Shown here: piece by piece, positions 1,303 through 55,505 of the stretch
Layout of the letters: each line of letters begins with the position of its first letter
How positions within the stretch are numbered: the stretch's first letter is position 1
Assembly (NCBI GenBank): GCA_964554715.1
Contig: CAZKPU010000001.1
Span: 5,833 to 69,832 of the forward strand
Origin: an uncultured Thermotogae bacterium
GTDB taxonomy: Bacteria > Bipolaricaulota > Bipolaricaulia > UBA7950 > UBA9294
Direction of reading: 5' to 3'
Length of the DNA stretch: 64,000 nucleotides
Position numbers and translations under genes: made by a program
The notes under the pieces: model-generated
Told to the model about the DNA's origin: nothing
What the model saw: only the letters and a program-made list of their open reading frames with translations
The model's database searches: none

Positions 1303-2159
1303 GGGAACATCCTTCTTCTCTCAGCACGGATCTTCGACAGCGCTTCCCGTAAGGCCGATTCATCCTCTTCGGCGATCCACTGCGTCAATTGCCCCAGCCT
1401 GCCCTGGAACGCGGCAACGGCGGAACAGATCTCCTGACGGTTCGTGAGCAGGATATCGATCATCATGTCGATATCGCTCCCGGAGATCCGCGATGTGTCA
1501 CGGAACCCGCCGGCGACGATCTCCCATGCCGCCGGATCACCGGATGTCACAGCATCGGCCGTAGCAACAAGACCGCACGACAGGAGATACGGGAGATGGC
1601 TGAGTGTTGCCGTCAGATGGTCCTGACGGGATGGATCGAGGATCAGGGGCACGCTTCCGATGGCACGAACAAGTGCTTCTGCCGTGGTAAGCGCCTCCGG
1701 AGTCGTTCGATCGAGCGGTGTCAGAATGAATGTGGCATCGTTGAAGATCTGCGGATCGGCGTGGCGGATCCCCGACAGCTCCTTGCCACACATCGGATGA
1801 CCGCCGAGTGCATGCACCGATGCGGGCAGGATCTCCATTCTCCTGACAATCTCCTGCTTTGTGCTTCCCAGATCGAGAAGCAAAGAGCCGGCGGGCCAGG
1901 AACGCGCATATGTGCTGATTTGGTCGAGGATTGCGCGAACCGGTGCCGCAAGGATCGTGATGTCGATGTCCGACACGGCTTCCTCGATGTCTGAGACGCC
2001 GGCATCGATGAGGTTGTGATCCAGCGCGAACTGAACGGCTTCGGGCCGTCGATCCATCCCGATAACCGTTGCACAACGATCACGGATCGCCGCGGCGAAC
2101 GATCCCCCCATGAGGCCAAGACCTAGCACGGCAACTCGACTGGATTCGATCGGCTTCAC
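1299..2159 (-). CDS. tyrA: prephenate dehydrogenase
   Basis: 286-aa ORF with an N-terminal Rossmann motif ([14 protein letters not shown]) and PDH-family similarity. The start codon is GTG, overlapping the aroF stop (GTGA). Confidence 0.8.
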
Positions 2160-3169
2160 AGCGTCCTCCCCACGGCGGCGGCCACGGCACCAACGGAATC
2201 CACAAGAGACGAGAACATCTCGGGAGGAAGCGACTGCGGACCGTCCGACAACGCAAGCTCTGGATGAGCGTGAACCTCGACCAGCAGTCCATCGGCGCCG
2301 CCGGCGACGGAGGCTTGCGCTACCGGAGTCACCAACTCCCGCTTGCCTGTTCCGTGACTGGGGTCGACGACCACGGGAAGATGTGTCAGCTGCTTCAGAA
2401 GAGGAATCGCGTTGATGTCCACCGTATTCCTTGTGTACGGCTCGAATGTACGGATTCCTCGCTCACACAGAACAACCCGTTCGTTCCCGTGGCTAAGGAT
2501 GTACTCGGCGGCCATCAACAGTTCCTCGATGGTCGACATCATTCCGCGCTTGAGGAGTACCGGTCGTTGCGCTCTACCGGCGGCATGCAGCAACGCGAAG
2601 TTCTGCATGTTCCTCGCGCCGATCTGCAGCATGTCCGCGTAGCTCGTGACCAAGGGAACGAGTTCCGGATCCATGACCTCCGTCACAACTGGGAGGCCCG
2701 TTTCCCGCCGTGCCTCCGCCAGAATCCGCAAGCCGGCCTCGCCCATTCCTTGGAAGCTGTACGGGGATGTTCGCGGCTTGAACGCTCCACCTCGTAGCAT
2801 GTGCGCACCTCTTTCCATGACGGAGTTTGCCGTTTCGAGAAAAGCATCCCGGCTCTCGACGGCGCAAGGGCCGGCAATGAGAGCCACTTGGCTTCCTCCG
2901 ATGCGCAAGTCGCCGATCGGCACAATCGTGTCTTCGGGATGAAACTCACGGCTTGCGCGCTTGAACGGCTTCTGGATCGGTACCGCTTCTTCAACGCCCC
3001 CCATCTGGCGGATGCGATCTGCATACACCGTCGCCCCGTCTCCGATAATTCCGACCACAGAGTGATCCTTGCCTTGAGAAACGTGCGTTTGGCAGCCCAT
3101 CTGCTCGATGAGAGCAATGACGTTGTTCAGTTGGATCGGCGTCGCATCCTGTTTCATGATGATAAGCAT
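2156..3169 (-). CDS. aroF: 3-deoxy-7-phosphoheptulonate (DAHP) synthase, type I-beta with N-terminal regulatory domain
   Basis: 337-aa ORF; the KDO8P/DAHP-synthase core (…GPCAVES…KPRTSP…) is preceded by a short ACT/FL-like N-terminal domain. Confidence 0.8.
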
Positions 3170-4044
3170 GGGTCTTTCTCACCTCGCTTTCGATCTTCGG
3201 GCGAGGACTCGTGAAGCTCGGCAATCGGCGTGGTGGCCGCAGGATACGACCCAAGCAGCTTGACGAAAGAGGATCGCCTTAGCAGCCCGCTGATCGCCGC
3301 CTCACACGCTGGGTCCTGACAGTGACCCTCGAAATCCAGGTAAAACACGTACTGCCACGGGCGGGTGGCCCGAGGTCTCGACTCCAGCTTACTTAGACTG
3401 ATGTGCCGTACCGCGAACTCTCCGAGACACTCGTACAAGGCGCCGGGATGGTGGGGGGTCGTAAAGATGATGGAGGTCTTGTTCCGTGGGGCACGCTCTG
3501 GAGCCTTTGTCGACAGGACGAAGAAGCGGGTGTAGTTCTGAGGAAAATCCTCGATGTTCCGGTCGAGGATCTCCAATCCCGAAAGCTGCGCAGCATCCTG
3601 GCTCGCGATCACGCCTACCGTGAGGTCGGGATGGGCTGCCAGATCATGTGCGGAGCTTGCCGTATCTGATGTGGCTTGTGGTCGGAAGTTCCTTTTCTGG
3701 AGGTAGTGCCGGCACTGAGAGAGTGCTTGCGGATGAGAACGTACGCTGACGAGCGACTCGATTGTCGCTCCCGGGGTACCGAGGAGCATGTGGTGCACGG
3801 AGAAGATGACTTCTGCGTAGATGCGAAGATCGTGCTCCATCAGCAATTCATAGCTCTGGTTCACCGATCCGGCGATGGAGTTCTCCACGGGAATCATTCC
3901 GTACTCTGTAGAACCTCGCTCGACCCGGGAGAAAACGTCGGCAAACGTCTCGCACGGGATCGATTCCGACGAACCTCCGAAGAACTGCCGAATCGCCTTC
4001 TCGGAGTAGGCCCCCGACTCTCCTTGGAATGCAACACGTGTCAT
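3154..4044 (-). CDS. pheA: prephenate dehydratase with C-terminal ACT domain
   Basis: The track ORF (353 aa) has a spurious N-terminal extension. The true start is [15 protein letters not shown] at ATG 4044 with an AAGGAGAG SD; it overlaps the aroH stop (ATGA). Confidence 0.85.
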
Positions 4045-4439
4045 GGTTGTCTCTCCTTCAAGGCCCAATCGGGGCGTAGAGTCCGCGTCTCGCCAAGGTA
4101 GATGTGGCGTATGGGATTCGATGAACGGCGGCACACAAGCAGCACTCGGATGCAATGGCGCAGGCTTCCGAGTACGTTCATTTCTTGCAAGCAGAGAAGA
4201 GGTGTGGCATGCCATCCCATGGCACGTGCCGCTTCGGCCGGATAGGCGGCATCCAAGTCGGATGTTGCGGTGAACAGGACATACGTGATCGCATCCACCG
4301 AGATGTCATTCTCACGAACGAGCGTCGCCAGCAATGTTCGTGTTGCGTCATGGATCGCTCTGACGGTGTTGGCCTCTGCCACAACAGCACCCCGGATCCC
4401 CACCTGTCCTTCCGGCACATCCAACCTCTCGATCTGCAT
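4041..4439 (-). CDS. aroH: chorismate mutase, AroH class (monofunctional)
   Basis: MQIERLDVPEGQVGIRGAVVAE…CLQEMNVLGSL…IRHIYLGETRTLRPD matches B. subtilis AroH. Start ATG 4439 with a GGAAGGAG SD. Confidence 0.8.
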   Translation of the reverse strand: MQIERLDVPEGQVGIRGAVVAEANTVRAIHDATRTLLATLVRENDISVDAITYVLFTATSDLDAAYPAEAARAMGWHATPLLCLQEMNVLGSLRHCIRVLLVCRRSSNPIRHIYLGETRTLRPDWALKERQP

Positions 4440-4461
4440 CGCGCTCCTTCCGTGCGAGGAA

Positions 4462-4497
4462 GCAAAAAAGAAAGACCGCAGGCACTTGCCTGCAGTC
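4462..4497 (-). terminator. intrinsic terminator (attenuator) in the aro operon leader
   Basis: Minus-strand RNA GACUGCAGGC-AAGU-GCCUGCGGUC (10-bp stem, 4-nt loop, one GU) followed by UUUCUUUUUUGC, ending 22 nt upstream of the aroH SD. Confidence 0.6.
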
Positions 4498-4531
4498 CAC
4501 AACGGCTTCCCTGGTCCGAATCGCCTATTCG

Positions 4532-4630
4532 CTAGACGACGTCAGGAAAGCCAACCGGAAAATAATAGTAAAAACGGACCTGGGTGGGCGAACTACTTCG
4601 ACTCACATCCACCATCAGGTCTTTCCGCAT
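4532..4630 (-). CDS. aromatic amino-acid attenuator leader peptide MRKDLMVDVSRSSSPTQVRFYYYFPVGFPDVV
   Basis: Hand-translated 32-codon ORF. The ATG lies 3 nt after the predicted TSS (leaderless). The codon run UUU-UAC-UAU-UAU-UUU (F-Y-Y-Y-F) plus two further Phe codons sits between hairpin A and the terminator. Confidence 0.6.
   Translation of the reverse strand: MRKDLMVDVSRSSSPTQVRFYYYFPVGFPDVV
4577..4621 (-). promoter_or_regulatory. leader hairpin A (pause / alternative-structure element) inside the leader-peptide ORF
   Basis: GACCUGAUGGUGG…CCACCCAGGUC forms an 11-bp stem with a 2-nt bulge, immediately upstream of the Phe/Tyr codons. The segment CCCAGGUCCG can alternatively pair with CGGACCAGGG at 4509-4518. 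Confidence 0.4.
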
Positions 4631-4639
4631 GATGCGAGC

Positions 4640-4668
4640 ATCATAGGATGGACAGGATGCAGTGTCAA
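4640..4668 (-). promoter_or_regulatory. sigma70-type promoter of the aro leader/operon
   Basis: Minus-strand TTGACA (4668-4663), 17-nt spacer, TATGAT (4645-4640). Confidence 0.6.
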
Positions 4669-4727
4669 GCCCCGCATCGATCCGCCCGTCTCCAACCACT
4701 CTCGGGCAGGAGGTCACAGGCGCTGCC

Positions 4728-5495
4728 CTATTGCGGCATCTCGATCTTTCCGACCGGTGCAACATACAGTGCGATCTCGTCGTCCCCATCGACGCCCAGA
4801 TACGTATCCAGCATGCTCTGGCTGTAGGCAACGATAGCACACGTCCCTGCCCTGATCGCTTCACACGCCAGATACAAGTTCTGACAGATATGACCACAGG
4901 ATAGCAGGATATCCTTAAGCGAATCGGTGGGATAGCGCCACTCGCTGCGATAAGGAATTGCTGTCCACACGAACGATACGGTCGCTGTGTCGACGAACGA
5001 TTGCCCAAAGCAGACTGCGCCGAGGGTCGGATCCTGTGGGCTTCGATCATCCTCAGGCCACAGTTCGACCAGCTGATGCTCGATCGGCGCATATCGGTAC
5101 AGACCCGGGACAACTCCTTCGACGTTGCGAATCCGCAGGTAGGTCTCGAACGGATGACGGCATCCGCCGGACGGCACGGTGCGAAACGCGTGGATCTTCT
5201 TGGGATGGATGCTGCGGATCCCTTGGGTGGACCACAGCAAGAAGGACAGCTCCACAAGGGAAAGAGGCTCGCCGTTGAACGATCGGTGACTCTGCCGATC
5301 CCGGATTGCGGCGATCAGAGGCACGTCTCCCAGCGTCGTAGGGAACTGCTCCGGCGGGACCAAGTCGATCAGCCGGGCTCCGCGGGGGATTTCCTTCTCG
5401 ATCGGAGGAGCGGGGATGCCTTTTTGCTGATCGGATTCAACATCAGGAAAAGAAGAGAAGTCTGGGTTCCGCAGATGCTTACGCGTATCACTCAT
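4728..5495 (-). CDS. SagB/ThcOx-type nitroreductase-family dehydrogenase
   Basis: 255 aa with nitroreductase-fold motifs (…RSFNGEPLSL…, …GGCRHPFETYL…); AAAGGAG SD. Confidence 0.6.
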   Translation of the reverse strand: MSDTRKHLRNPDFSSFPDVESDQQKGIPAPPIEKEIPRGARLIDLVPPEQFPTTLGDVPLIAAIRDRQSHRSFNGEPLSLVELSFLLWSTQGIRSIHPKKIHAFRTVPSGGCRHPFETYLRIRNVEGVVPGLYRYAPIEHQLVELWPEDDRSPQDPTLGAVCFGQSFVDTATVSFVWTAIPYRSEWRYPTDSLKDILLSCGHICQNLYLACEAIRAGTCAIVAYSQSMLDTYLGVDGDDEIALYVAPVGKIEMPQ

Positions 5496-5861
5496 TCTTG
5501 TTTTCTCCTTTGGTCTGCGATCATCTTCTTCTAGGTCGCCGGCAATCCCATGGGCGGTTCAATCAGGTCTCCGCAAGGCAGTCTCAGCGTGCGTCATCCT
5601 GACGGCTCACTCAATGGGCACGTTTTGAGCACGATCATCATCACGAAGCTGTGGAAGCACTCTTCGGTGGCTCGCGATCTCGGTGCCTTTCAAGACGAGC
5701 TGGCTTGGTGGACCAGCGATGGCTCACCTGAATGGATCCCTCCTGTCGATGGCCTCATGGGCCGCCCTGATCATACCAGCAAGCGAACGCTGCGATGGAG
5801 TTCGGACGCGTCTTCTTGTGTTCACAGCTTCTTCCGATCCGTGTGATAGGATACCCTCACG

Positions 5862-9989: not shown

Positions 9990-11837
9990 CTATCCCACCT
10001 TGTCCGGTTGCTCCGGCACGTCGTAGAGGATGTCATCCAGTGGATGACGGTACAGACCCTGAGCGAGCCGGTTCTGGTCGAAGTAGTGGCCCATCAGGCC
10101 GATCGAGCGGCCGAGGACGAACAGCGCGTTGAACATCCCCATCTTGATCATCTGGTCGATCTCGGCGTCGCCGAAGCCGACTTCCTTGAGGAGGTCGACA
10201 AGGAGAACGCCGATGCATCCGTCGACGTTGAGGATGAGGTTGTTCTTCTTCTGGGTTGTCACCGCTTCCACTGACAGCGCGTAGTCGAGAAGCGGCGTGG
10301 CCTTGAAGTTCTTCTTGGCGAAGCCCTTCATCAACTCGACCCGTTTGTCGGGGTTCTCCACGGTGTGCAGACGGTGACCGATCCCCTGAACCCGCACGTT
10401 CTTCGCCTTCATGTGGGCGATGAACTCACGGGGCGGCAGTTCGTTTCGCAGTCCGAACAGGAAGTGCTCGGCTGCGCCGTTGACCGCTCCGCCGAATCGG
10501 GGGCCGATGGTGAGGATTCCGCTGACCAGCGAGCTTATCAGGTCTTTGCCCGCCCGGGCCGTGACGATCGTGTTGTGGGCGCCGGATACGGCTGCACCGT
10601 GGTCGGCGATGATCTGGATGACCATCTCCATGAACCGGCGGGCGTAGGCGGGGATGTCCTTCTTGAACCACAGCAATCCAAGGACACCGCCGATCCCGTA
10701 GCCCTGCTCGATCACGTCGTCGATCGGCACTCCGCAGTAGTTGTGGACTTCACCGGATTCATCGCAGATGGTCGAGATGAAGTTGGTGGGCTTACGGACA
10801 AGGCCTTCGGCCTTCGCCTGCTTGTAGTCCATCGGCACATGGGGCGGCTCGAACTCTTCAGCCGGTACGATCGTCCCCGCGGCCACGAGCTTGTCGTAGG
10901 TCGCCTTGATCTTCTCGGCGTAGTCGTCGAAGGAGTCGGGGACGATGACGCCTGCGTCGCGCAACGCTTGATTCTTGGCGTCTGCGGTCTCGTCTTCGCC
11001 GCCGGCCTTGGCGCCGGCGTGGCCGAACTGCACCTGACCGGGAAGAACCTTAGCGCAGGTTCCGGTCGTCCACATCACCAGCGGCTTGGTGATCCGATGA
11101 TCTCTGACAGCGGCTGCGATCTCATGCTCGGCGGTGCCACCGACCTCGCCGAGGCACACGAGCATCTTGATCGCCGGGTTCTGCTCGTATCGGAGAAGGT
11201 GATCGAGAAGACTGGCGCCTGGGTGAGCGTCACCTCCGATCGCGATCCCCTCGTAGACACCGTCGGTGGTCCGCGAAACGATGTTGTATGCTTCGTTCGA
11301 CATCCCTCCGGAGACCGAGACGAACCCCACCGAGCCGGGACGATACAGCTTGGACATCTTGATGTTGTCCATCGTTCCGGCGGTGTTCCCGATTTTGAAC
11401 GCGCCCGCTTTGATCCCGCCGACGGTGGCCGGGCCGATGATCCACTTGTTCTTCGCCTTGGCGGTGGCGGAGAGGATGCGGGCATGACGCTCGGGAACGC
11501 CCTCGGCAATCACGGCGATCGTGCGGATCGTATCCGTCTCCAGGGCCTCCATGGTGGTCTCGAACGCCGAGCGCTGGGATGCGAAGTTGACCATCACATC
11601 CGCGTTGGGGAACTTGCTGACCGCGTCGGCGATGGAGCGAAGCCGCGGGATCGTGATCTCGCGGGTTCCCCAGAAGAACTTCTCGAATCCACCGCGTTCC
11701 GGCGTGATCATCGCAACAACGCTCGGGCTTTCTTTACGGCAGAGATAGTCGAAGTCGAGCATCCGCTGCACTGCGTTGGTCTGCGCACCGTAGATGAACG
11801 CTTTGGTGTCGCGAGAGAAGAGTTCGTAGCTATTCAT
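9990..11837 (-). CDS. aclA: ATP-citrate lyase large subunit (CoA-binding / phospho-His / citrate-synthase-like domains)
   Basis: 615 aa. It aligns to the C-terminal two-thirds of eukaryotic ACLY and carries the GHAGA active-site His region. It overlaps aclB by 8 nt. Confidence 0.85.
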   Translation of the reverse strand: MNSYELFSRDTKAFIYGAQTNAVQRMLDFDYLCRKESPSVVAMITPERGGFEKFFWGTREITIPRLRSIADAVSKFPNADVMVNFASQRSAFETTMEALETDTIRTIAVIAEGVPERHARILSATAKAKNKWIIGPATVGGIKAGAFKIGNTAGTMDNIKMSKLYRPGSVGFVSVSGGMSNEAYNIVSRTTDGVYEGIAIGGDAHPGASLLDHLLRYEQNPAIKMLVCLGEVGGTAEHEIAAAVRDHRITKPLVMWTTGTCAKVLPGQVQFGHAGAKAGGEDETADAKNQALRDAGVIVPDSFDDYAEKIKATYDKLVAAGTIVPAEEFEPPHVPMDYKQAKAEGLVRKPTNFISTICDESGEVHNYCGVPIDDVIEQGYGIGGVLGLLWFKKDIPAYARRFMEMVIQIIADHGAAVSGAHNTIVTARAGKDLISSLVSGILTIGPRFGGAVNGAAEHFLFGLRNELPPREFIAHMKAKNVRVQGIGHRLHTVENPDKRVELMKGFAKKNFKATPLLDYALSVEAVTTQKKNNLILNVDGCIGVLLVDLLKEVGFGDAEIDQMIKMGMFNALFVLGRSIGLMGHYFDQNRLAQGLYRHPLDDILYDVPEQPDKVG

Positions 11838-13116
11838 TCGTTCCTCCCGAAAGCGCCATCGAAACGATGCGCGTCATGTGAGTTTCGGGTCCGTAGACTT
11901 CGACCGGAACGCCGATCTCCTCACCGACGCGGCGCATGTTTTCCAGGCCTTCTTTGAAGTTGGGACCGCCACGGCGGACGTAGACCCTGACCTTGTTCTG
12001 TTGCAGCTTGTCTTTGTAGGCTTTGAGCGCTTGGATGATCCCGGTGAACGTCTTTGCCACGTCCGTGAAGTTGGCGATTCCGCCGCCGATCAGCAGGAAC
12101 TTCGGGCGTCCTTGCGGGTCCGGCTTCCGGGTCATCAAGTCGAGAAGGGTCTTGGCGTATTCGTAGGTCATCTCGGTCGAAGGGTTCCCGGAGTATTCGC
12201 CGTAGCAGGCGAGTTCTTTTGCGAACCCAAGGTCGACGACCGTGTCGGCATAGATCACGCTGGCGCCGCCGCCGGCGACCATCGGCCAAACCCGTCCGTC
12301 CGGGTTGAGAACGGTCAGCTTCAGTGAAGCTCCGGTCTTCTCATCGAGCGACGCGATGTACGCCTCTTCGGGGGTCGCCGTCGATCCGAACGGCTTGGGG
12401 AACTCCAGCTTTCCCCAGACCTCGGCGCATTGGAAGGCGGCCGTGTCATCCATCTTAGCGACCGTATCCAACGGGACGAGTGCGCCTTCGGCAAACGTGA
12501 TCGGGTTGAACTCCAAGTAGGTGAAGTGATACTCGGTGAACACCCGGTACAACGTCTCGATGAATCGGGCTACCTTCTCCTTCTCAGGCAGATCGGGAAG
12601 GGCGTCGGCCACGTGGATCGCTGCCGGATCGCCGAGGATCGGGACATCGAGGGTTGTGACGCTTTCCCACACCTCTTCGATGTCGACGCCTCCCTTGGTC
12701 GAGAAGTGGATGGTGTCCTTGTCATGGCCGGTCGTGAACGCCAGGTAGTACTCTTCCTCGTGGGGGACGAACGGCTCGATCAGGAAGTGCGTCAGCGTAC
12801 CGGTGGTTTCCCCGGTGGTCTGCTGGATCGTGACCGTCTTGTTCATCCTCTCCCGAATCCATGCAACGACTTCATCGAGACGCTTGTTCACGAACAGCAG
12901 GTTGTTCTTGCCGCGCTTCCCGAATAACTGATCCGGCTTACAGACCAACGGCGCACCGGTCAACCACGGGTGTTGTTCGGCAAGCGCATTCAGATCGGTG
13001 TCCGGCGTCACGAGTACCAAGCGGTCCTCGAACTTGAGCGCTCCATCGGACAGCTTGTCGACGGCAGCGGCCAGCATCCGCTTCGCATCGTACTCGCGTA
13101 TTCCTTTCTGTGCCAT
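11830..13116 (-). CDS. aclB: ATP-citrate lyase small subunit (ATP-grasp)
   Basis: 428 aa. There is strong collinearity with the ACLY N-terminus (…HPWLxxxxLVxKPDQLxxRRGK…FLIEPFVPH…GASLKLTxLNPxGRxWxMVAGGGASVxYxDT…). Confidence 0.85.
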   Translation of the reverse strand: MAQKGIREYDAKRMLAAAVDKLSDGALKFEDRLVLVTPDTDLNALAEQHPWLTGAPLVCKPDQLFGKRGKNNLLFVNKRLDEVVAWIRERMNKTVTIQQTTGETTGTLTHFLIEPFVPHEEEYYLAFTTGHDKDTIHFSTKGGVDIEEVWESVTTLDVPILGDPAAIHVADALPDLPEKEKVARFIETLYRVFTEYHFTYLEFNPITFAEGALVPLDTVAKMDDTAAFQCAEVWGKLEFPKPFGSTATPEEAYIASLDEKTGASLKLTVLNPDGRVWPMVAGGGASVIYADTVVDLGFAKELACYGEYSGNPSTEMTYEYAKTLLDLMTRKPDPQGRPKFLLIGGGIANFTDVAKTFTGIIQALKAYKDKLQQNKVRVYVRRGGPNFKEGLENMRRVGEEIGVPVEVYGPETHMTRIVSMALSGGTNE

Positions 13117-13134
13117 GTTGGCTTTCCCCCTACC

Positions 13135-14439
13135 CTAAAGGTTTCCGATGATCTCGTCGCCGAATTCGGAGCACGACAGAAGTGTGGCTCCGTCCATCTG
13201 ACGTTCGAGATCGTAGGTGACACGCTTGTTGTCGATCGCCTTCTTGATCCCGTCAATCACAAGATCCGCGGCCTCCGTCCAGCCCAGATACCGGAGCATC
13301 TCCACGGCCGACAGGATGATGCTGCCGGGGTTCACCCTGTTCTTGCCGGCATGCTTCGGAGCGGTTCCGTGAGTTGCCTCGAAAATGGCGTGGCCGGTGT
13401 TGTAATTGATGTTGGCCCCGGGTGCGACGCCCAGCCCGCCAACCTGAGCTGCGGCCGCATCGGTGACGTAGTCGCCGTTCAGGTTCATGGTTGCAACCAC
13501 CGAGTACTCCGTAGGACGAAGCAGCATCTGCTGGAAGAACTGATCGGCGATCCGATCGTTGATGACGATCTTCCCCTCGGGAACGGTGCCTCCATGTTTC
13601 TGGGCGACCTCGTTCTCGGTGACGAGTTGCGGGTAGTCCTTGGCGACCTCGTATCCCCAATCCCGGAACGCACCCTCGGTGAACTTCATGATATTGCCTT
13701 TGTGGACCAGGGTTACAGTGGGCCTGCCACTCTTGATCGCATACTCGATCGCGGCGCGAACCAGACGCTTCGTTCCTTCTTCACTGATCGGCTTGATCCC
13801 GATTCCGCACATCTTCGGGAAACGGATCGCGGTCGTGACCCCCATCTCGTCCCGCAGCCAGCCTATGACCTTGTCGGCGTCCGGGGTTCCGGCGCGCCAC
13901 TCGATCCCGGCATAGACGTCTTCCGTGTTCTCGCGGAAGAATACAACGTCGACGTCGCCCGGGCGTTTCACGGGTGCCGGCGTGCCGATGTGCTGGACAG
14001 GCCGAACACACGCGTACAGGTCGAGCAGCTTGCGCAGCGTCACATTTAGGCTGCGGATTCCTCCCCCCACCGGGGTCGTCAGGGGACCCTTGATGGCAAC
14101 GAAGTACTTGCGGATGGCTTCGACGGTCTCCTCCGGCAAGTACAGCGCCTGGCGCCTGTCCGGCGGGATCGCGACGATCTCCTCTTCGGAAAGCTCCGGA
14201 TGATTGGTCGCCACGGCCTCATCACCGGCGAGGACCTTCATCCACTCGATCTTTCTTGCCTCCCCGTACGCCTTTCGAACGGCCGCATCAACGACCTTCT
14301 GCATGACGGGAGAAATGTCGACTCCGGTGCCATCTCCACGAATGGCGGGAACAATCGGATGATCGGGGACGTTGAGACGACCGTTGACCATCGTGATCGG
14401 AACACCCGACTCCGGCGGCTGCGGGATGTAGTTGGACAT
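13135..14439 (-). CDS. icd: isocitrate dehydrogenase (NADP, homodimeric prokaryotic type)
   Basis: Near-collinear with E. coli Icd (GDGIGVD…, [19 protein letters not shown]…, NLNGDY…). The true start is MSNYIPQ at ATG 14439 (AAAGGAG SD); the track ORF is N-terminally over-extended. Confidence 0.85.
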
Positions 14440-14456
14440 GGTGTCCTGGCTCCTTT

Positions 14457-15215
14457 TTACTGCACGTGGCTTGCGTGCAGGCCCTCTGAAATCTTCCCGG
14501 CGGAACGCACGACCCGCCGGATCACTCGGTCTCGCTTCTTGCCCTCCAAGCGGTGGGACGGTGCCGACACGCACAACGACGCCACGACTTGGCCGTCTGC
14601 AGCAAGGATCGGCGCACCGATCCCATAGGTTCCTTCATCGACTTCGCTGTCGGACTCTGCGTATCCCAGACTGCGGATTCTGTTGAGTTCCTCATGCAGC
14701 TTCTTGGGGGTTGTGATCGTATTGGCGGTAAACCGCGCAAGCCCGTACCGCTCGATGATGGTGTCTTGGCGTTCGGGATCCAGGAACGCCATCAGCGCCT
14801 TTCCGGATGCACCTGCGTGCAGAGGGAAGACCGCCCCACGCTGGTGCGACACGCGAAGCGCGTGAAGACCTTCGATCCTCTCCAAGCACACGCCGTCGTG
14901 ATCGCGCAGCGAAGAGAGAATCACTGTTTCACCTTCCTGTCTGGACAAGGTACGCATGATCGGCAACGCGATCTCACGCAGGCTTGGCCGGACAACGCAG
15001 CCGGCGAGTTCGAGAATCTTCGTTCCCAGACGATAGATTCCGCTGCGTTCTTGGACGATGAGATGGTGCTTGCGGAGCACGGCGAGATATCGATACGCCG
15101 TACTCGCTGGCAGATCCATGCGCTCAGCGATCTCCCCGGCCGACAGGGCAGGTGTCTCAGGTGAGAACAGGGTGAGGATCCGGATCCCTTTCTCCAGCGT
15201 TGATAGCCCGCTCAT
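14457..15215 (-). CDS. IclR-family transcriptional regulator
   Basis: N-terminal wHTH ([24 protein letters not shown]) and C-terminal IclR effector domain. The preferred start is MSGLST (GGGGG SD). Confidence 0.75.
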
Positions 15216-15305
15216 GACGCCCCCGGCTCGAGAGGATCGCACAGAGGCCGTGCGGGCCTCTTCTTGGGGAGGCGCACGCACGGCTTAGATCCACAATCGG
15301 AGTCG

Positions 15306-15331
15306 ATGGAGACACATTTCCTCATCTCCAT
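15306..15331 (-). promoter_or_regulatory. perfect 7-bp inverted repeat ATGGAGA-N12-TCTCCAT upstream of iclR (candidate operator)
   Basis: Seen directly in the acn-iclR spacer. Confidence 0.3.
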
Positions 15332-15351
15332 CGTCGCCGGATTGATATCGT

Positions 15352-17235
15352 TCATTGTGTTGTGTAGGCAAGCAGTCCGCCCGCTCGGATCATGTCCATC
15401 TCGCGCTCGGACAGATCGTGGCGGATCTCGATCGTCTCCCCCGTGGTCCGGTTGAGCACGGAAAGCGGCCGGGTGAGATCCGAAACATCGATCTCGAGTT
15501 CGTCTCCCGGATTCAACCGATCCGTATCGGCCATGAACGGGATGATCCCGACGTTGATCAGATTCGCACGGTGAATCCGTGCGTAGGTCTTGGCAAAGAC
15601 GGCCTTGATGCCGAGCTGCCAAGGAGCGAGCGCTGCGTGCTCTCTGGAAGAGCCTTGGCCGTAGTTGTCTCCACCCACAATGAAGCCGCCGTTCTTCTCG
15701 GTGGCGCGGTCGGCGAACTCCTTATCCTCGTAGAAGAAGGTGAACTTCGCGATCTCCGGAAGGTTGCTGCGGAGATGCTGAGTCAACGGACCGGCCGGAA
15801 GGATGGCGTCTGTAGAGATGCCGTCTCCGACCTTGAGAAGGACCTCTCCTTTCAGCGTCTGAGGGAGAGGCTGTTGCGGTCGCAGAGCGACGATATTCGG
15901 TCCTCGGCGGATCTCCATCGAAGCGCCGGCCGGCTCGAGGATGAGCGTGTCGTCGATCGTTAGGCTGGAGACCTCGACTTCGACCGCGGGCAGCTTCCGC
16001 GGATCGGCGATCGCCCCAGCGAGCGCCGAAGCCGCAGCAACCTGCGGGCTGCAAAGGGCGAGCTTCCCGAACTTGTTTCCGCCGCGACCTTTCCAGTTTC
16101 GGTTCACCGTTCGCAGAGAGAGGTGTTCGTGACCGGGAACGAACCCGATTCCGATGCAAGCATTGCATCCCGGCTCGATCATCCGGACACCGGCCTTGGT
16201 CATCGCCAAGAAGCTTCCGTCCTCCATCAGCATCTCCCAGGCCTGTCGCGATCCGGGTGATACAACGACATCGATGTCGGGAGAGACCTTCTTGCCCTTC
16301 AGAATCTCGGCCGCGATCTTCACATCCTGATAGCTTCCGTTTGTGCACGATCCGATGTAGACCTGATCGATCTTCGTACCCTCGACTTCTTCGATGTCGA
16401 AGACGTTGTCGGGCATTCCGGGCATGGCAACCAGCGGCTTCAGCGCAGACAGGTCGATCTCGATCGTCTTGTCGTAGGTTGCCCCCGGATCAGGCTGTAC
16501 GGCGACCCAATCCCCCTCTCGCTCCTGCATGGCAAGGAACTGCCGGGTGATGTCGTCGGACGGGAAGATCGACGAGGTAGCTCCCGTTTCCGTACACAGG
16601 TTGGTGATCGTAGCGCGTTCGGGAACGGTCAGCGTCTTTACTCCGGGGCCGTCGAATTCGAGGAAGTACCCCACGCCTCCCTTCACCGAGATGCGTCGCA
16701 GAATCTCGAACGCGATGTCTTTGGCCGCAGCGCCCCAGGGCAGCTTCCCGGTGAGCACGACCCGCAGCGTTTGCGGAACGGTCAAATAAAACAACCCGCC
16801 GCCCATGGCGACGGCGACATCGACCCCTCCTGCACCGATTCCGAGCATCCCCAATCCGCCTGCCGTCGGGGTGTGCGAATCGGACCCGAGAAGCGTCTTG
16901 CCGGGAACGCCGAACCGCTCGTAGTGAAGCTGGTGGCAAACGCCGTTCCCGTTCTTGGAGAACTTGGCGCCGTAGTGGGAAGCGATCGTCTGCAGGAAGA
17001 TATGGTCGTCCGTTGACTCGCCCTTGAATCCGAGCGATGTGTGATCGGAGTACGATACGACCGTCTCCGCCTTGACCCGATCCAATCCGAGCGATTCGAA
17101 CTCCAGCCAGGCCATCGTTCCGGTCGAATCCTGCGTCAGACAGTGATCAATCTGGATTCCGACGGGGGTTCCTTTGGTGAGTTCCCCCTCCCGAATGTGA
17201 TGGGAGAGGATCTTTTCCGTGATCGTCTGCGGCAC
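15352..17235 (-). CDS. acn: aconitate hydratase, ~630-aa Aquifex/archaeal type (fused catalytic and swivel domains)
   Basis: Aconitase-family Fe-S ligand motifs (…GSCTNGS…, …CNACIGIG…) and a C-terminal swivel domain. The likely start is GTG 17235 (MPQTITEKIL, AGAGGTGAT SD); the track start at 17292 is an alternative. Confidence 0.75.
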   Translation of the reverse strand: MPQTITEKILSHHIREGELTKGTPVGIQIDHCLTQDSTGTMAWLEFESLGLDRVKAETVVSYSDHTSLGFKGESTDDHIFLQTIASHYGAKFSKNGNGVCHQLHYERFGVPGKTLLGSDSHTPTAGGLGMLGIGAGGVDVAVAMGGGLFYLTVPQTLRVVLTGKLPWGAAAKDIAFEILRRISVKGGVGYFLEFDGPGVKTLTVPERATITNLCTETGATSSIFPSDDITRQFLAMQEREGDWVAVQPDPGATYDKTIEIDLSALKPLVAMPGMPDNVFDIEEVEGTKIDQVYIGSCTNGSYQDVKIAAEILKGKKVSPDIDVVVSPGSRQAWEMLMEDGSFLAMTKAGVRMIEPGCNACIGIGFVPGHEHLSLRTVNRNWKGRGGNKFGKLALCSPQVAAASALAGAIADPRKLPAVEVEVSSLTIDDTLILEPAGASMEIRRGPNIVALRPQQPLPQTLKGEVLLKVGDGISTDAILPAGPLTQHLRSNLPEIAKFTFFYEDKEFADRATEKNGGFIVGGDNYGQGSSREHAALAPWQLGIKAVFAKTYARIHRANLINVGIIPFMADTDRLNPGDELEIDVSDLTRPLSVLNRTTGETIEIRHDLSEREMDMIRAGGLLAYTTQ

Positions 17236-17345
17236 AGCAATCACCTCTGCGCTGCGCGCGGCGGAAGGCTGCATGCGCAACTGCGCCGCCACGCGCGGGT
17301 GCGTTTCTCACATGATGAGAAGGGAGTCTCATTTTGTGGTTGCGC

Positions 17346-21130: not shown

Positions 21131-22009
21131 TTAGCGATCTGCCTTCCCTCCTTTCGTACAAGATTTCGTCGAGAGCTCGAGTTGCTCCACGACTTCGGCG
21201 ATCACATCATCCGGGGTGGACGCACCGGCGGTAACGCCGATCCGTTCGAAGGTACCGCTGGTAATCTCCTGAAGCTCATCTGCCGATTCGATGTGGTAGG
21301 TCGGGATTCCGGTAGCTCGGCAGGTCTCGGCCAGTTTTCGGGTGTTCGCCGAGGAACGGCTTCCAACCACGATCAGCGCGTCGACTTCCATCGCGAGGTG
21401 CTTCGCCGCGTCGTAGCGGCGCCCGGTTTCCGGACATGTTGTGTTGACGATCCGAATCTCCGGAGTCCTGCCGGCGAATCGGCGCGTCAGTGCCTGAGCA
21501 AACTCTGCGAACAGCTCGGGCTTCTTTGTCGTCTGAGCAATGATGCCGATCCCCTTTGTGCCTTCGGGGACCTCGACATCGGCAGAGACCGTTGCTGCTC
21601 CGCACCCTCTTGTCCATGAGAGGATGCCCTTCACCTCGGGATGATCGGCATCGCCGTAGAGAATGACGTAGAACCCGTCATCGACCAGCTTGGCTGCCGT
21701 TTCCTGCGCCCGACGGACGATCGGACAGGTTGTGTCGACCAACCGAAGACCTCGCTGACGGATTTCGGTATGAACCTCCTCGCCGGCGCCGTGGGCGGTG
21801 ATGGCGACGGTTCCTCCCTCCGGAACCTCATCCAGGGTGGACACCAGGTGCGCCCCCTTGCGAGCGAGGCCGTTGACAACATGCGTGTTGTGGACGATTG
21901 CACCGAGCGTGCACAACGGGCCGTGCTCGGAAAGGTCCGTCTCAATCATATTGACGGCTCTTCGGACGCCGAAACAGAACCCGAAGATGTTCGCGCGAAC
22001 GATGTTCAT
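21131..22009 (-). CDS. ispH: 4-hydroxy-3-methylbut-2-enyl diphosphate reductase
   Basis: Collinear with LytB/IspH (…FGFCFGVRRAV…, …TTCP…, …NTTCPET…). The true start is MNIVRAN at ATG 22009, overlapping the shc stop (ATGA). Confidence 0.85.
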   Translation of the reverse strand: MNIVRANIFGFCFGVRRAVNMIETDLSEHGPLCTLGAIVHNTHVVNGLARKGAHLVSTLDEVPEGGTVAITAHGAGEEVHTEIRQRGLRLVDTTCPIVRRAQETAAKLVDDGFYVILYGDADHPEVKGILSWTRGCGAATVSADVEVPEGTKGIGIIAQTTKKPELFAEFAQALTRRFAGRTPEIRIVNTTCPETGRRYDAAKHLAMEVDALIVVGSRSSANTRKLAETCRATGIPTYHIESADELQEITSGTFERIGVTAGASTPDDVIAEVVEQLELSTKSCTKGGKADR

Positions 22010-23964
22010 ACCGACTCTCCCCCGTTTCTCAAGCTGCGACACTTCTTCTCGTACCGCCCCAGCGCCATCAGAGGGAACACATCGCGATAGATGTGATAGC
22101 GGATCATGAAGTCGGTCGGGAACCCTGTTCCTGTGAACCACGGCTCGTCCCACCCGCCGTCATCGCGCTGCGTGCGGATGAGGTATTCGATCCCGCGCTC
22201 CACCGCCGGATGGTGCACCTCTCCAGCAGCGATCAATCCGAGAAGAGCCCATCCGGTCTGCGATGCAGTTGATGGACCACGGCCGCGATACGTCGGGCCG
22301 TGATAACTCTCCACCCTCTCTCCCCAGCCTCCGTCTTCGTTCTGCCGTTCGAGAAGCCATGACACCGCGCGCCTCACGTACGGTGCCCTCATGTCTTCCC
22401 CCACCGCTTCCAGCGCCGGGAGGACGGTACCGGTTCCGTAGATCAGATTGACGCCCCATCGGCCGTACCAGGCGCCGTCTTCTTCCTGTTGCTGCTTCAG
22501 ATACCGGAGGGCACGTCGGAGAACGGGATGATGCATCGGCCATCCCAGCCGGCCGAGGAACTCGACGATATGACCGGTCACATCGGCGGACGGAGGATCG
22601 ATCATCTCACCGAAGTCGGCGAAGGGGATCTTGCGCGTCCAGGTTTGCGTGTTGTTCCGGTCAAACGCACCCCACCCACCGCCACGGCTCTGCATCCCCA
22701 CCAACCACTCGGTACCGCGGGCAATCGCTTCCCGTTTGCGACCCTCATCCAGTTTCGCCTCGGCAAGAGCCATCATGACCACTGCGGAGTCGTCCGTGTC
22801 CGGATAGATGTCGTTGTCGAACTCGAACGCCCACCCGCCCGGGCGAGCGTTGCAGCGAACCTGCCAATCTCCACCGACAAGGATCTGCTCGCGCAGCAGC
22901 CATTCCCCTGCACGGATCAGAACATCATCATCTTCCGAGACGCCCGCATCCTCCAGCGCCATCATCGCCAATCCGGTATCCCAGACCGGCGAAAGACACG
23001 ACTGCAAGTGGAACGTATCCTCGTCCTCCATCGCGAACCCCTGAGGTCCGTAGAACCCGTCGAGACCCTTCTTGATCACAGGATGATCGAGTTTGTATCC
23101 GAGTTCATGCAGAGCGATCAGCGAGTACACCCACGGGGGCTGGATGCCGCCCCACGACCCATCGGCTTCCTGCCGATCCGCGATCCACCGCTCGGCTCTG
23201 CGAAGCGCCGTCTTCCGAAGAGGTTTGTACGGGAGCCGGTTGTAGAGGCGATAGAGCTTGTCGAACACCACGAACATCCGGCTGATCGGTGTCTTCTTGC
23301 GGTCGGGGACACGATCGTCGGCTCCTTCGCGTCCGTTGACGAACAGCTCGTCGATCGTTGCTTCCCGCGGAAGCGGTACGACCGGTTCCAGAGTTCGGAC
23401 GACGGCCAACGCCCCAACGGTCTGCCTTGCCCAGCATGCGAAGGAGTAGATGTTCACCGGGAAACGGCGCGGCAGAAGGAACAGCTCGATAGGGATCATC
23501 GGCGTTCCCCGCCACGTCCACTCACCCATCATGGCGAACCACATCTTGGTGAAGATGCGCGCGTTCTCCATGCCCCCTTCAGACAAGATGTAGTCTCGAG
23601 CCCGCACCATCTCGGGGGTCTCCACGGGGATGTCGGCCATCTTCAGGGCCAGATACGCTTCGATCGTGGTCGAAAGGTCGGCTGCTCCCTCGAACCAGTT
23701 GCTCCATGTCCCATCTTCCCGTTGCATCTCGAGGATGTAGCGGGCCGCCTTTTTCTGTTCCTTCTTGTCGGAGATCCCGAGGATATGGCGGAGAAAGACG
23801 TGTTCCGCCGTGATGGTGACGTTGGACTCCAGCTCGGCCCACCAGTAACCGTCTTCATGTTGCATCCTGCGAAGATGCTCAATGGCCTGCTCGATCGCGT
23901 GTTGCCGCGCTTGGGCAGCAGATCCCGTTCTCACCGTTGTCGTTGCCGTCTGTTCGATACTCAT
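22006..23964 (-). CDS. shc: squalene-hopene cyclase
   Basis: 652 aa with repeated QW motifs and a DGGWG-type terpene-cyclase signature. Confidence 0.85.
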   Translation of the reverse strand: MSIEQTATTTVRTGSAAQARQHAIEQAIEHLRRMQHEDGYWWAELESNVTITAEHVFLRHILGISDKKEQKKAARYILEMQREDGTWSNWFEGAADLSTTIEAYLALKMADIPVETPEMVRARDYILSEGGMENARIFTKMWFAMMGEWTWRGTPMIPIELFLLPRRFPVNIYSFACWARQTVGALAVVRTLEPVVPLPREATIDELFVNGREGADDRVPDRKKTPISRMFVVFDKLYRLYNRLPYKPLRKTALRRAERWIADRQEADGSWGGIQPPWVYSLIALHELGYKLDHPVIKKGLDGFYGPQGFAMEDEDTFHLQSCLSPVWDTGLAMMALEDAGVSEDDDVLIRAGEWLLREQILVGGDWQVRCNARPGGWAFEFDNDIYPDTDDSAVVMMALAEAKLDEGRKREAIARGTEWLVGMQSRGGGWGAFDRNNTQTWTRKIPFADFGEMIDPPSADVTGHIVEFLGRLGWPMHHPVLRRALRYLKQQQEEDGAWYGRWGVNLIYGTGTVLPALEAVGEDMRAPYVRRAVSWLLERQNEDGGWGERVESYHGPTYRGRGPSTASQTGWALLGLIAAGEVHHPAVERGIEYLIRTQRDDGGWDEPWFTGTGFPTDFMIRYHIYRDVFPLMALGRYEKKCRSLRNGGESV

Positions 23965-53241: not shown

Positions 53242-53268
53242 TTAGCAGTTAAGGTATGAGACTGCTAA
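53242..53268 (+). promoter_or_regulatory. CIRCE-like HrcA operator TTAGCAGTT-N9-GACTGCTAA
   Basis: Compare the consensus TTAGCACTC-N9-GAGTGCTAA. It lies 14 nt upstream of the clp start codon; the spurious track start ATG 53256 falls inside its spacer. Confidence 0.55.
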
Positions 53269-53282
53269 CCAAGGAGATAGTC

Positions 53283-55505
53283 ATGATTCGCTTTGATAAG
53301 ATGACGCAGGGCGCACAGGAGCTTTTTCGCGAATCCCAGGATCTTCTCACGCGGTATAAGCACAATCAGCTCGATGTCGAGCACTTGGTCAGTGTTCTTG
53401 CCGGCAAAGAAGGAACCGGGCGCGAGATTCTGCAGGCGATGGGGGTTCATGTCGACGGTTTGGTGAAGGATCTTGACTTCCTGCTTCGCCGCAAACCAAC
53501 GGTCTCCGGCCCGACCGGCGGACAGATCTACATCACCCCCCGCCTCGAATCCGTCGTCACGGGGGCACAGATGGAGGCGGACCGCCTGCGGGACGAGTTC
53601 ATCGGGGTGGATCACCTGCTGCTGGCGATCAGCCGGGTGATCGAGCCTGAGTTCAAGCGGGTCCTCGATAAGCATCACATCACCCCCGAGGCGATCTACG
53701 CCGGACTGAAAGAGGTGCGCGGCGAGCAGCGGGTGACGGATCAGGACGCCGAAGATCGGTACCAGGTGTTGAAGAAGTACTCCAGCAACCTCACGGAGAT
53801 GGCTCAGCGCGGAGATCTCGATCCGGTGATCGGGCGCGATGAGGAAATCCACAGGATGCAGCAGATTCTCTCCCGGCGCCGCAAGAACAACCCGGTCTTG
53901 ATCGGGGAGCCCGGCGTGGGAAAGACGGCCGTGGTGGAAGGACTCGCTCAACGGATCGCTGACGGTGAGGTGCCGGAGGGGCTCAAGAACAAGGAGATCA
54001 TCTCCTTGGACATCGGGGCGATGGTTGCCGGTTCGAAATTCCGTGGCGAGTTCGAGGATCGGTTGAAGGCGGTCATCAAAGAGATCGAAGCGACGGCCGG
54101 CCAGTCGATCGTGTTCATCGACGAGGTCCACACCATTGTTGGTGCAGGGGCCGCGGAAGGTGCGATCGATGCATCGAACATGCTCAAAGAACCGCTTTCC
54201 CGGGGAAGGTTCCAATTGATCGGAGCGACAACGCTGGATGAGTACCGGGAGCATGTGGAGAAGGACTCCGCTTTGGAGCGCCGGTTCCAGAAGATCTTCG
54301 TTGACGAACCGACGATCGAGGAAACGGTGGCGATCTTGAATGGACTCCGGAGTACCCTTGAGGAACACCATGGGGTCAAGATCACCGACGACGCTCTTGT
54401 GGCGGCCGCCAAGCTGTCGGAGCGGTACATCTCGGATCGGTTCCTGCCCGACAAAGCGATCGATCTGATCGATGAGGCGGGCAGCCGCATCCGTGTCGAT
54501 GCCAGCGGAGAAGAGGTCACCGAGGCGCAGATCGCAGCGTTGGTCTCTCAATGGACGGGGATTCCGGCTGAACGGATGATCGAAGAGGAACGAGCGCGGC
54601 TGGCACAGATGGAGGACATCCTCCACGAGCGTGTGATCAACCAGGTGGAGGGGGTCCGCGCTGTATCCCAGGCGGTCCGCCACTCCCGTGCCGGTCTTTC
54701 GGATCCGCGCCGGCCGATCGGAACGTTTCTCTTCCTCGGCCCAACCGGCGTGGGGAAGACCGAACTCGCCAAGGCGCTGGCGTCGTTTCTGTTTGGCTCC
54801 GACGACGCGCTATTGCGGATCGACATGAGCGAGTACATGGAGCGCCACGCCGTATCGCGGCTGATCGGATCGCCCCCCGGGTATGTCGGGTATGAGGAAG
54901 GTGGCCAGCTCACCGAATCGGTCCGGCGTCGGCCGTATCAGGTTGTGCTTTTCGATGAGGCGGAAAAAGCCCATCCTCAGGTGATGAACCTGATGCTCCA
55001 ACTGCTTGACGAGGGGCGGCTCACGGACGGGCACGGGCGGACGGTGGATTTCAAGCACACGATCCTCATCCTCACATCCAACGTCGGCAGCGAGCGGTTC
55101 GAATCGGATGCGGCCTGGGAATCGATCGAGGAACAGGTGCGAGAAGATCTCAAGGGCGCGTTCCGGCCGGAGTTTCTGAACCGGATCGACGAGACGATCG
55201 TTTTCCACCGCCTCGAACAAGATGCAATTGCCCAGATCGTGGATCTGAAGATCGGCGCGCTCAACGAGCGGCTTGCCGAACAAGGGATCGCTCTCTTGTT
55301 GACGCAGAGCGCTCGAACGGCGCTTTCTCGGAAGGGGTTCGATCCGCACTACGGAGCGCGGCCGCTGGAGCGCGCGATCAAGCGGTTGATCGAGAACCCT
55401 CTTGCCGAGAAGATCGTAGCCGGAGAGATCGCAGAGGGAGATCACGTATCGGTCGATGCTGCGGCAATGTCCGACACGCTCCTCATCAGGAAAGCTTCGT
55501 CTTGA
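53283..55505 (+). CDS. Clp/Hsp100 AAA+ ATPase with ClpB-like N-domain and two NBDs but no M-domain and no ClpP-docking tripeptide
   Basis: Walker A GEPGVGKT / GPTGVGKT. The NBD1-NBD2 linker (…[33 protein letters not shown]…) is ~10 aa where ClpB has ~120. No IGF/L loop. Start ATG 53283 after AAGGAG. Confidence 0.7.

Follow-up and report, generated by a model that had tools for sequence, protein, structure and literature searches.

A putative Phe/Tyr leader-peptide attenuator without a detectable antiterminator upstream of a Bipolaricaulota aroH operon

The DNA analysed here is a 64-kb stretch (the window) from an uncultured bacterium deposited under Thermotogae (contig CAZKPU010000001.1 of assembly GCA_964554715.1, positions 5,833 to 69,832), and our subject is the leader region upstream of aroH, the first gene of an aromatic amino-acid operon. 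This region very probably holds a leader-peptide attenuator that senses Phe and Tyr. It is a member of a sizeable leader family that is undescribed in the literature searched, with a sensor known in kind and without a competing hairpin. Amino-acid sensing is strongly supported by the shared family layout and by control runs that differ between members and stand upstream of matching genes, and we infer that sensing proceeds by ribosome stalling. The next step is proposed more tentatively: the element may be a ribosome-mediated transcription attenuator for the aroH-pheA-aroF-tyrA-aroA operon in which a parked ribosome hinders the terminator by proximity, a reading that we consider possible rather than probable.

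The leader and its family

Coordinates are those of the window, and leader and operon all lie on the minus strand (−). The leader comprises the following elements, including an open reading frame (ORF) and two hairpins, H1 and H2, taken from minimum-free-energy (MFE) structures.

4663–4668 (−): −35 hexamer TTGACA, 17 nt from the −10 hexamer
4640–4645 (−): −10 hexamer TATGAT, the same in five close relatives
4628–4634 (−): putative transcription start region and leader ATG (4630–4628), placed by the −10-to-ATG distance
4532–4630 (−): leader ORF of 32 codons plus TAG (4534–4532), MRKDLMVDVSRSSSPTQVRFYYYFPVGFPDVV, its length and stop position conserved in loci L181, L105, L003 and L001
4577–4621 (−): hairpin H1 (MFE), within the ORF (RNA nt 10–54), its 3' arm ending 3 nt before the control codons
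4559–4573 (−): control codons TTT TAC TAT TAT TTT (F20–F24, codons 20–24), in the unpaired linker between H1 and H2
4504–4552 (−): hairpin H2 (49 nt, MFE), between control codons and terminator, with the stop codon in its apical part
4499–4503 (−): spacer GUUGU from H2 to the terminator, read from the sequence
4473–4498 (−): terminator stem-loop GGACUGCAGGCA-AGUG-CCUGCGGUCU, with 11 pairs, 7 of them G-C, and a loop of 4
4463–4472 (−): U tract UUCUUUUUUG, directly after the terminator stem
4444–4462 (−): small hairpin CUUCC (4462–4458):GGAAG (4451–4447), from the consensus fold of five relatives, masking the aroH Shine-Dalgarno (SD) sequence GGAAGGAG (4451–4444)

A first-pass annotation of this DNA had proposed a promoter just ahead of an ATG, a leaderless 32-codon ORF opened by that ATG, and five consecutive Phe/Tyr codons following a hairpin inside the ORF. 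All of these are present. The promoter, TTGACA-17-TATGAT, has 11 of 12 matches and is the sole such site in 3900–5600, where shuffled sequences give 0.7; 9 nt (gctcgcatc) separate its −10 hexamer from the ATG (4630–4628). This distance, together with like geometry in 77 of 80 family members, implies a 5' untranslated region of 0–3 nt, so that transcription would begin at the AUG or 1–3 nt before it and the leader mRNA would carry no SD sequence. H1 ends 3 nt before the F-Y-Y-Y-F run (4573–4559). The annotation was also right that the peptide is hidden within a mechanical ORF of 241 aa (4532–5257), which contains the leader reading frame and overlaps, in a different frame, a Pfam-supported nitroreductase gene (4728–5495). 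Rfam covariance models identified no leader family, T-box or riboswitch in 4200–4900 at E ≤ 10, and a search of the whole window at the gathering score returned nothing relevant. A T-box reading was rejected on the want of an Rfam match and on the UGGU of the terminator 3' arm, which is CGGU in about half of the family members.

Homologues of AroH pointed to four close relatives (L001/L002, L003, L105 and L181; AroH identity 71% to >90%), which have the same promoter, a gctcgcatc-type spacer, exactly 32 codons and the same stop position. Their control pentads, with that of the window, read FYYYF, FFYYF or FSYYF (F[YFS]YYF): position 21 varies among TAC, TTC, TCC and TCG, and the codon after the run is CCG, GTG, GCA or GCC. 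The annotation had argued for a combined Phe and Tyr sensing peptide, and we find this very likely, given that F[YFS]YYF is kept in relatives and that the codons of other family members precede cognate genes. Eleven more AroH-linked loci in GTDB, from Bipolaricaulota metagenome-assembled genomes (MAGs) and MAGs labelled Thermotogae or uncultured, show the same layout and nearly the same terminator.

A terminator-pattern scan of metagenomes returned 95 stretches, 80 with enough upstream sequence, and 84 leaders are non-redundant; the family comprises at least 90 leaders of common layout. Terminator invariance in the metagenome set is largely imposed by the search pattern, and the ~10 members found through AroH are the only independent sample of it. 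Among the 80 usable members, 77 have a TTGAnn-17/18-TAnnnT promoter with an ATG 6–10 nt after the −10 hexamer (78 with a looser pattern). Of these 77, 72 have a −35/−10 spacer of 17 nt and 5 have one of 18 nt; the ATG stands 9 nt from the −10 hexamer in 50 members and 8 nt from it in 18. Because 77 of 80 occurrences are preceded by this leaderless promoter layout, the terminator is essentially leader-specific.

Element order is the same in all members: promoter abutting the ATG, H1, unpaired control codons, H2, a short spacer and the terminator. H1 begins at nt 1–9 throughout (family mean z = −2.4), and 50 of 88 members have a partly paired AUG. From the last control codon to H2 the median distance is 4 nt (interquartile range 3–6), and from the first it is 17 nt. 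H2 spans 39–65 nt, has z < −2 in all 84 non-redundant members (mean −5.2) with 58 distinct basal 8-mers, and holds the stop codon in its apex or at its first base. After a spacer with a median of 5 nt (range 0–7) comes the terminator, GACU[AG]CAGGC-loop-GCCUG[UC]GGUC plus a U tract, which is near-invariant: the loop is 3–6 nt long and pair 5 alone covaries (GC 17, AU 15, GU 6). The window conforms to this terminator pattern and fits the family in its promoter geometry and in its unpaired control codons 6 nt before a 49-nt H2 with an apical stop. Alignment with MAFFT and folding with RNAalifold on 38 or 22 diverse members recovered the terminator only; H2 is too divergent, so sequences were folded individually against shuffles instead. 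An apparent correlation between the control-codon-to-H2 and H2-to-terminator distances (r = 0.82) was discarded as an artefact of how the MFE structure sets the hairpin base.

Control runs differ across the family and match the genes downstream, as listed here.

F/Y/W runs: downstream AroH
WWW: downstream DAHP synthase, or a family-5 binding protein
RWYWF: downstream PF04392 binding protein
TT(T): downstream homoserine dehydrogenase, or a TGS/tRNA_SAD (ThrRS-like) protein
MMM and HYFILWM: downstream LivJ-like binding proteins
YLYWW: downstream M24 peptidase

This correspondence is the strongest evidence that the ORFs are probably translated sensors. It also bears on the null explanation, in which a small ORF lies by chance beside an unremarkable promoter and a terminator that is leaky or constitutive. 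Taken alone, a single promoter-like site in 1.7 kb is near chance; set against this, the ORF, its frame and length, the control run and the architecture are conserved over ~90 leaders with cognate downstream genes, and we regard the absence of any regulator here as scarcely credible.

Several members show arrangements of their own. L092, L124 and L139 each contain two terminator matches on opposite strands, ~420–520 nt apart, and are divergent leader pairs that share an intergenic region; one leader of each pair has an F/W/Y run before aroH and the other has WWW (FWYWH in L092), before DAHP synthase in L124 and L139. L132, L147 and L150 share the architecture but have short leaders of 21 codons, which finish with RPVQPGP, RPVPPGS or RPLQPDS and lie upstream of citrate synthase. 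PPG is a known stalling motif, and these leaders, with Pro and Gln codons beside H2, may be sensors of a glutamate-family or EF-P type. Thr-type leaders ending in FLNTTTS* (L088, L111, L127, L152, L153 and others) precede a conserved protein of ~160 aa without a Pfam match, whose start codon overlaps the end of a spacer ORF (MTTTG...) in an ATGA.

Leader RNA folding and the search for an antiterminator

The 199-nt leader RNA folds at −84 kcal/mol (z = −4.4 against dinucleotide shuffles) into three hairpins, H1, H2 and the terminator. H1 has a basal extension in the MFE structure (4627–4622 paired with 4561–4556), and the consensus fold of five relatives shows compensatory changes at four of its pairs, by which H1 is maintained although the N-terminal half of the L001 peptide diverges strongly. 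H2, absent from the first-pass annotation, is larger than H1. Its 5' arm, GGCUUUCCUG (codons G-F-P), begins 6 nt past the last control codon; its 3' arm, CAGGGAAGCC, is purine-rich and SD-like, and changes there in relatives only exchange U-A for U.G pairs with the 5' arm. The spacer that follows holds a UUG (4502–4500), 5 nt before GACU, and a GUG (4500–4498) that reaches the first base of the terminator stem.

An intrinsic terminator between the peptide stop codon and the aroH SD sequence had been proposed and is confirmed, with an 11-bp stem (4498–4473) and a U tract. Its sequence occurs once in the window, and the stem-loop is followed by TTCTTTTTTG. Across the family, pairing is predicted for the SD sequence ahead of the first structural gene (mean probability 0.62), with the U tract in many members and with CUUCC in the window; such masking could add a translational layer that silences leaky read-through.

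The annotation had described the element as pheL/trpL-style, with mutually exclusive antiterminator and terminator pairings that folding should reveal, and had named as grounds for abandoning this view the lack of a structure able to sequester the terminator 5' arm. No such structure was found. The terminator was kept in the MFE structure of all 11 leaders tested with a 28-nt ribosome footprint blocked on the control codons or the stop codon, and in partition functions of the 84 non-redundant leaders its two arms pair with a probability of 0.97–0.98 in the free, stalled and stop-codon states. Duplex energies of every upstream segment against each terminator arm revealed none that beats shuffles (mean z −0.2 to +0.6). 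The 5' arm of H1 was rejected as a partner of the terminator arms (z = +0.18 and −0.22). H2 and the terminator share no bases, being separated by 5 nt in the window and 0–7 nt in the family. The purine (R) and pyrimidine (Y) pattern of the hairpin arms is R-Y, Y-R, R-Y (A-R, B-Y, C-Y, D-R, E-R, F-Y), which makes the neighbouring arms B:C and D:E non-complementary.

A classical trpL/pheL-type attenuator would thus need an overlooked antiterminator helix sharing bases with the terminator 5' arm. The leader peptide, control codons and terminator do fit the overall logic of such a device. In transcripts truncated before the terminator 3' arm, the 5' arm is mostly unpaired, and bases after the control codons pair weakly with it in some members (UUUGCAGUU:GGACUGCAGG in L003), at a mean probability of 0.32 in untranslated RNA. 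As a candidate antiterminator, however, this pairing (UUUGCAGU:ACUGCAGG in L003) was rejected: a stalled ribosome would cover it, giving the wrong sign of regulation, it is degraded in the window by one mismatch and extra wobble pairs, and it is unenriched relative to shuffles (z +0.59). The arm pattern likewise forbids B:C and D:E pairing. A by-eye complementarity between the terminator arm and the 16S 530 loop (8 of 10, with mismatches) was at chance level and was also set aside.

A second, unrelated type of aroH leader provided a positive control. About 65 of 80 Anaerolineae/Chloroflexia aroH loci (L004–L083; for example L041, L046, L017 and L057) carry a different Phe/Tyr leader ~100–250 nt upstream of aroH, with peptides such as FSYYYFYFSCP, YYYYYYY and FAFFYYYFYW; we found no description of these leaders in the literature searched. 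Like the window, they combine a Phe/Tyr-rich peptide with a terminator upstream of aroH. Unlike it, they have a 5' untranslated region with an SD sequence, a different terminator (CGUGGAGC..GCUCCACG, GUGGAGC..GCUCCAC) and a strong antiterminator, GGGUCGGCUCC:GGAGCGACCC. The duplex test detected this antiterminator in 46 such leaders (mean −18.7 kcal/mol, z = −3.28, 96% below −1.5), whereas the same test on the window's family gave z = +0.52 with 2% below −1.5. The control validates the test, which can evidently detect real antiterminators. With no alternative structure able to sequester a terminator arm, the classical mechanism fails for this family; it is largely refuted, and we consider it very improbable.

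Comparison with described leaders places the difference in the same step. E. coli pheL-pheA and trpL (pheL: PMC3082878) share with the window a short leader ORF, tandem cognate codons, a terminator before biosynthetic genes and an expectation that stalling yields read-through. The window differs in having no 2:3 antiterminator, in control codons that occupy an unpaired linker before a hairpin and not the inside of segment 1, in an mRNA that is apparently leaderless and without an SD sequence, and in a probable joint sensing of Phe and Tyr; it is also unmatched by the Rfam leader families (Phe_leader, Trp_leader and others), even at E ≤ 10. Closer in layout is C. glutamicum ilvBNC (PMC11857589), with a leaderless peptide, as predicted for the window, three consecutive hairpins, an H2 beside the terminator and a 5'-end H1 that can block initiation while allowing termination. 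In the present family, too, H1 could occlude the initiation region. In ilvBNC, which belongs to another phylum and responds to other amino acids, a GCC trinucleotide is common to H2 and the terminator and both compete for it, which makes H2 a true antiterminator, whereas H2 of the window shares nothing with its terminator.

Possible links between stalling and termination

We tentatively propose that H2 acts as a distance switch. RNA polymerase would start at the AUG or 1–3 nt before it, and a 70S ribosome would have to load on the bare 5' end before H1 closes. With ample Phe-tRNA and Tyr-tRNA, the ribosome would pass F-Y-Y-Y-F, unwind H2, reach the apical UAG and leave; H1, H2 and the terminator would then all fold and transcription would end at the U tract, as it would if no ribosome loaded. 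With Phe or Tyr short, the ribosome would park on the control codons, with its leading edge anywhere from ~5 nt short of the 5' foot of H2 to 5 nt within it. Folded H2 sets its feet side by side, so that no more than the 5-nt spacer would separate the parked ribosome from the terminator base, and the ribosome could sterically hinder the closure, adjacent to RNA polymerase, of its weak basal pairs (G-C, A-U, C-G, U.G). A ribosome inside H2 would lose the hairpin shortcut, leaving the terminator ~20–30 nt away and free to fold. H2 would not be an antiterminator of the classical kind, since no RNA segment can pair with the terminator arms.

Antitermination without an alternative helix has a precedent in E. 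coli pyrBI, where a ribosome that closely follows the polymerase is a physical obstacle to formation of the terminator hairpin. In pyrBI the signal is UTP-dependent pausing of the polymerase, and the leader ORF extends through the terminator. In the window, by comparison, 34 nt lie between the end of the ORF and the terminator, and H2 would have to provide the proximity. Distance-dependent repression of terminators by nearby ribosomes is reported elsewhere (PMC4824070).

Several considerations weigh against proximity and keep this specific mechanism, in our judgement, a little short of an even chance. The steric step is conjectural. A ribosome on the last control codon should already open 4–7 bp of H2 and loosen the geometry, and a chain of 5–12 nt between ribosome and polymerase makes a clash plausible, not certain. 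The near-invariance of the terminator sequence is unexplained by the model. In 30 of 78 members a start codon stands precisely 5 nt ahead of the terminator, a feature that a steric model does not need. Equilibrium folding with ViennaRNA, finally, cannot exclude tertiary or kinetic traps.

The start codons are central to the main rival, a relay of two ribosomes. Here the stalled ribosome would open the foot of H2 and unmask its SD-like 3' arm and a start codon in the spacer (UUG 4502 or GUG 4500), with GGGAAGCCGUUGUG as the candidate 30S site; a second ribosome would cover the terminator 5' arm 5 nt downstream and translate through towards the first structural gene, so that translational attenuation of the erm/cat type would bring about transcription antitermination. 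Together, the 3' arm of H2 and the spacer carry GGAG, GAGG or AGGA in 65 of 84 members, clustered 13–17 nt before the terminator, and have a mean anti-SD duplex energy of −7.0 kcal/mol compared with −2.0 for the 5' arm. AUG, GUG and UUG codons upstream of the terminator peak at offsets −5 (30 of 78), −11 (13) and −2 (9), all in one frame, and in the window UUG 4502 and GUG 4500 are preceded by AGGGAAG. In at least eight members the end of the spacer ORF overlaps the start of the structural gene in an ATGA. The U tract often pairs with the SD sequence of the first gene, so that translation through the region would help.

The relay also has a documented parallel in mycobacteria, where a ribosome stalled on a leaderless short ORF unmasks an SD sequence (10.1101/834739). 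These polycysteine ORFs resemble the putative leader of the window as leaderless sensory ORFs in which a stalled ribosome opens a structure, and they form an operon set read by stalling on one kind of codon (a 'ribulon'), as proposed for the present family. The abstract describes no regulated intrinsic terminator alongside the SD unmasking, whereas a canonical terminator with a U tract is the core of the family here.

Other observations fit a relay poorly. The site lacks a start codon in 48 of 78 members, 34 of the 45 aromatic-type leaders among them (AAG, GAG, CAG or ACG instead), and AUG alternates with ACG or CCG within classes. The frame is open to the gene start in 25 of 27 members with a start codon and in 31 of 43 without, a difference that is not significant (p = 0.06). 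Its relation to the aroH frame is unconserved in the clade of the window and shifts with U-tract length (L181). A ribosome at the apical stop codon would, moreover, unmask the same arm. We judge the relay rather unlikely, though the leading competitor to proximity.

A further reading invokes a trans-acting factor. A protein, or a small RNA such as the terminated leaders of sister operons, would bind the terminator hairpin and set read-through across the regulon, with the leader peptide adding amino-acid specificity or merely synchronising ribosome and polymerase. Consistent with this, the terminator is conserved despite having no pairing partner in cis, in contrast to the free drift of H1 and H2, it is nearly confined to leaders (77 of 80 with the leaderless promoter layout), and one terminator serves at least five amino-acid classes. 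The loop varies from 3 to 6 nt, however, no candidate factor was identified, and a good part of the invariance seen in the metagenome set derives from the search pattern, with only the ~10 AroH-found members independent of it. We find a trans-acting factor improbable.

Returning to H2, it is conceivable, at much the same tentative level as proximity itself, that the family is a phylum-wide regulon (Phe/Tyr, Trp, Thr, Met, mixed hydrophobic and possibly Pro/Gln) in which stalling is coupled to the terminator without an RNA antiterminator, with H2 as a sequence-free distance switch or as an unmasker of a second-ribosome site. Either output of H2, if true, would add a class of ribosome-mediated attenuation that works by a new mechanism. 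Textbooks define leader-peptide attenuation by its competing hairpins, and a large natural family with sensor and terminator but no competing hairpin would show a second route from ribosome position to RNA polymerase. The scaffold is compact (~165 nt) and modular, with five or more amino-acid specificities, and could be used as a programmable part. According to a 2010 survey, leader peptides were known from Proteobacteria and Actinobacteria only, with candidates in Firmicutes (PMC2965389), and the literature searched yielded no account of them for either Bipolaricaulota or Chloroflexota. The family offers a first view of amino-acid regulation in Bipolaricaulota and predicts substrates of transporters and enzymes from leader peptides.

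Operon, gene calls and host

The annotation had described a mixed Phe/Tyr operon downstream of the leader, and its five genes are all present, the first four confirmed by Pfam and EPSP synthase read from sequence and synteny.

4041–4439 (−): aroH, AroH-type chorismate mutase, 132 aa; Pfam CM_1, E = 9e-39, ATG at 4439
3154–4044 (−): pheA, prephenate dehydratase, 296 aa; Pfam PDT, start by synteny (gene calls in L001 and L179)
2156–3169 (−): DAHP synthase, type I-beta with FXD domain; Pfam DAHP_synth_1
1299–2159 (−): tyrA, prephenate dehydrogenase; Pfam PDH
1–1302 (−): aroA, EPSP synthase; read from sequence and L001 synteny, running off the window

The tyrA stop and the aroA start overlap in an ATGA, and aroE and aroC come next in the operon of the syntenic locus L001. 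A mechanical ORF at 3154–4215 (353 aa) overstates the prephenate dehydratase, for which the synteny start at 4044 gives 296 aa. UUG 4502 was considered as the start of an N-terminally extended AroH (a 153-aa ORF, 4041–4502) and rejected as a chance frame, the relation being lost in L181 and L003. Gene callers erred similarly in L001, where AroH is called as 154 aa and a 51-aa gene is placed across the leader. Leaders of this family are miscalled in annotation, as the 51-aa gene and 154-aa AroH in L001 and as the 241-aa ORF in the window.

On the host, the annotation had hinted at a high-GC lineage, which is misleading: genome GC is ~60%, and ClpC of the window (53256–55505) has 88% identity to a Candidatus Bipolaricaulota protein, compared with 79% for Candidatus Acetothermia and 77% for Candidatus Bipolaricaulis. 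By this protein-level comparison, the host is assigned to Bipolaricaulota and is not an actinobacterium. AroH of the window is closest to Anaerolineae proteins (up to 61% identity). With AroH nearest to Anaerolineae in a genome that ClpC assigns to Bipolaricaulota, the aro operon may have been transferred from one phylum to another, though its leader is of the Bipolaricaulota and not the Anaerolineae type.

Elsewhere in the window (9990–17292 and 22006–23964) lie an ORF with CoA-ligase and citrate-synthase domains (ATP-citrate-lyase-like), isocitrate dehydrogenase, aconitase and squalene-hopene cyclase, genes that hint at a reductive tricarboxylic acid cycle and hopanoids in this Bipolaricaulota lineage.

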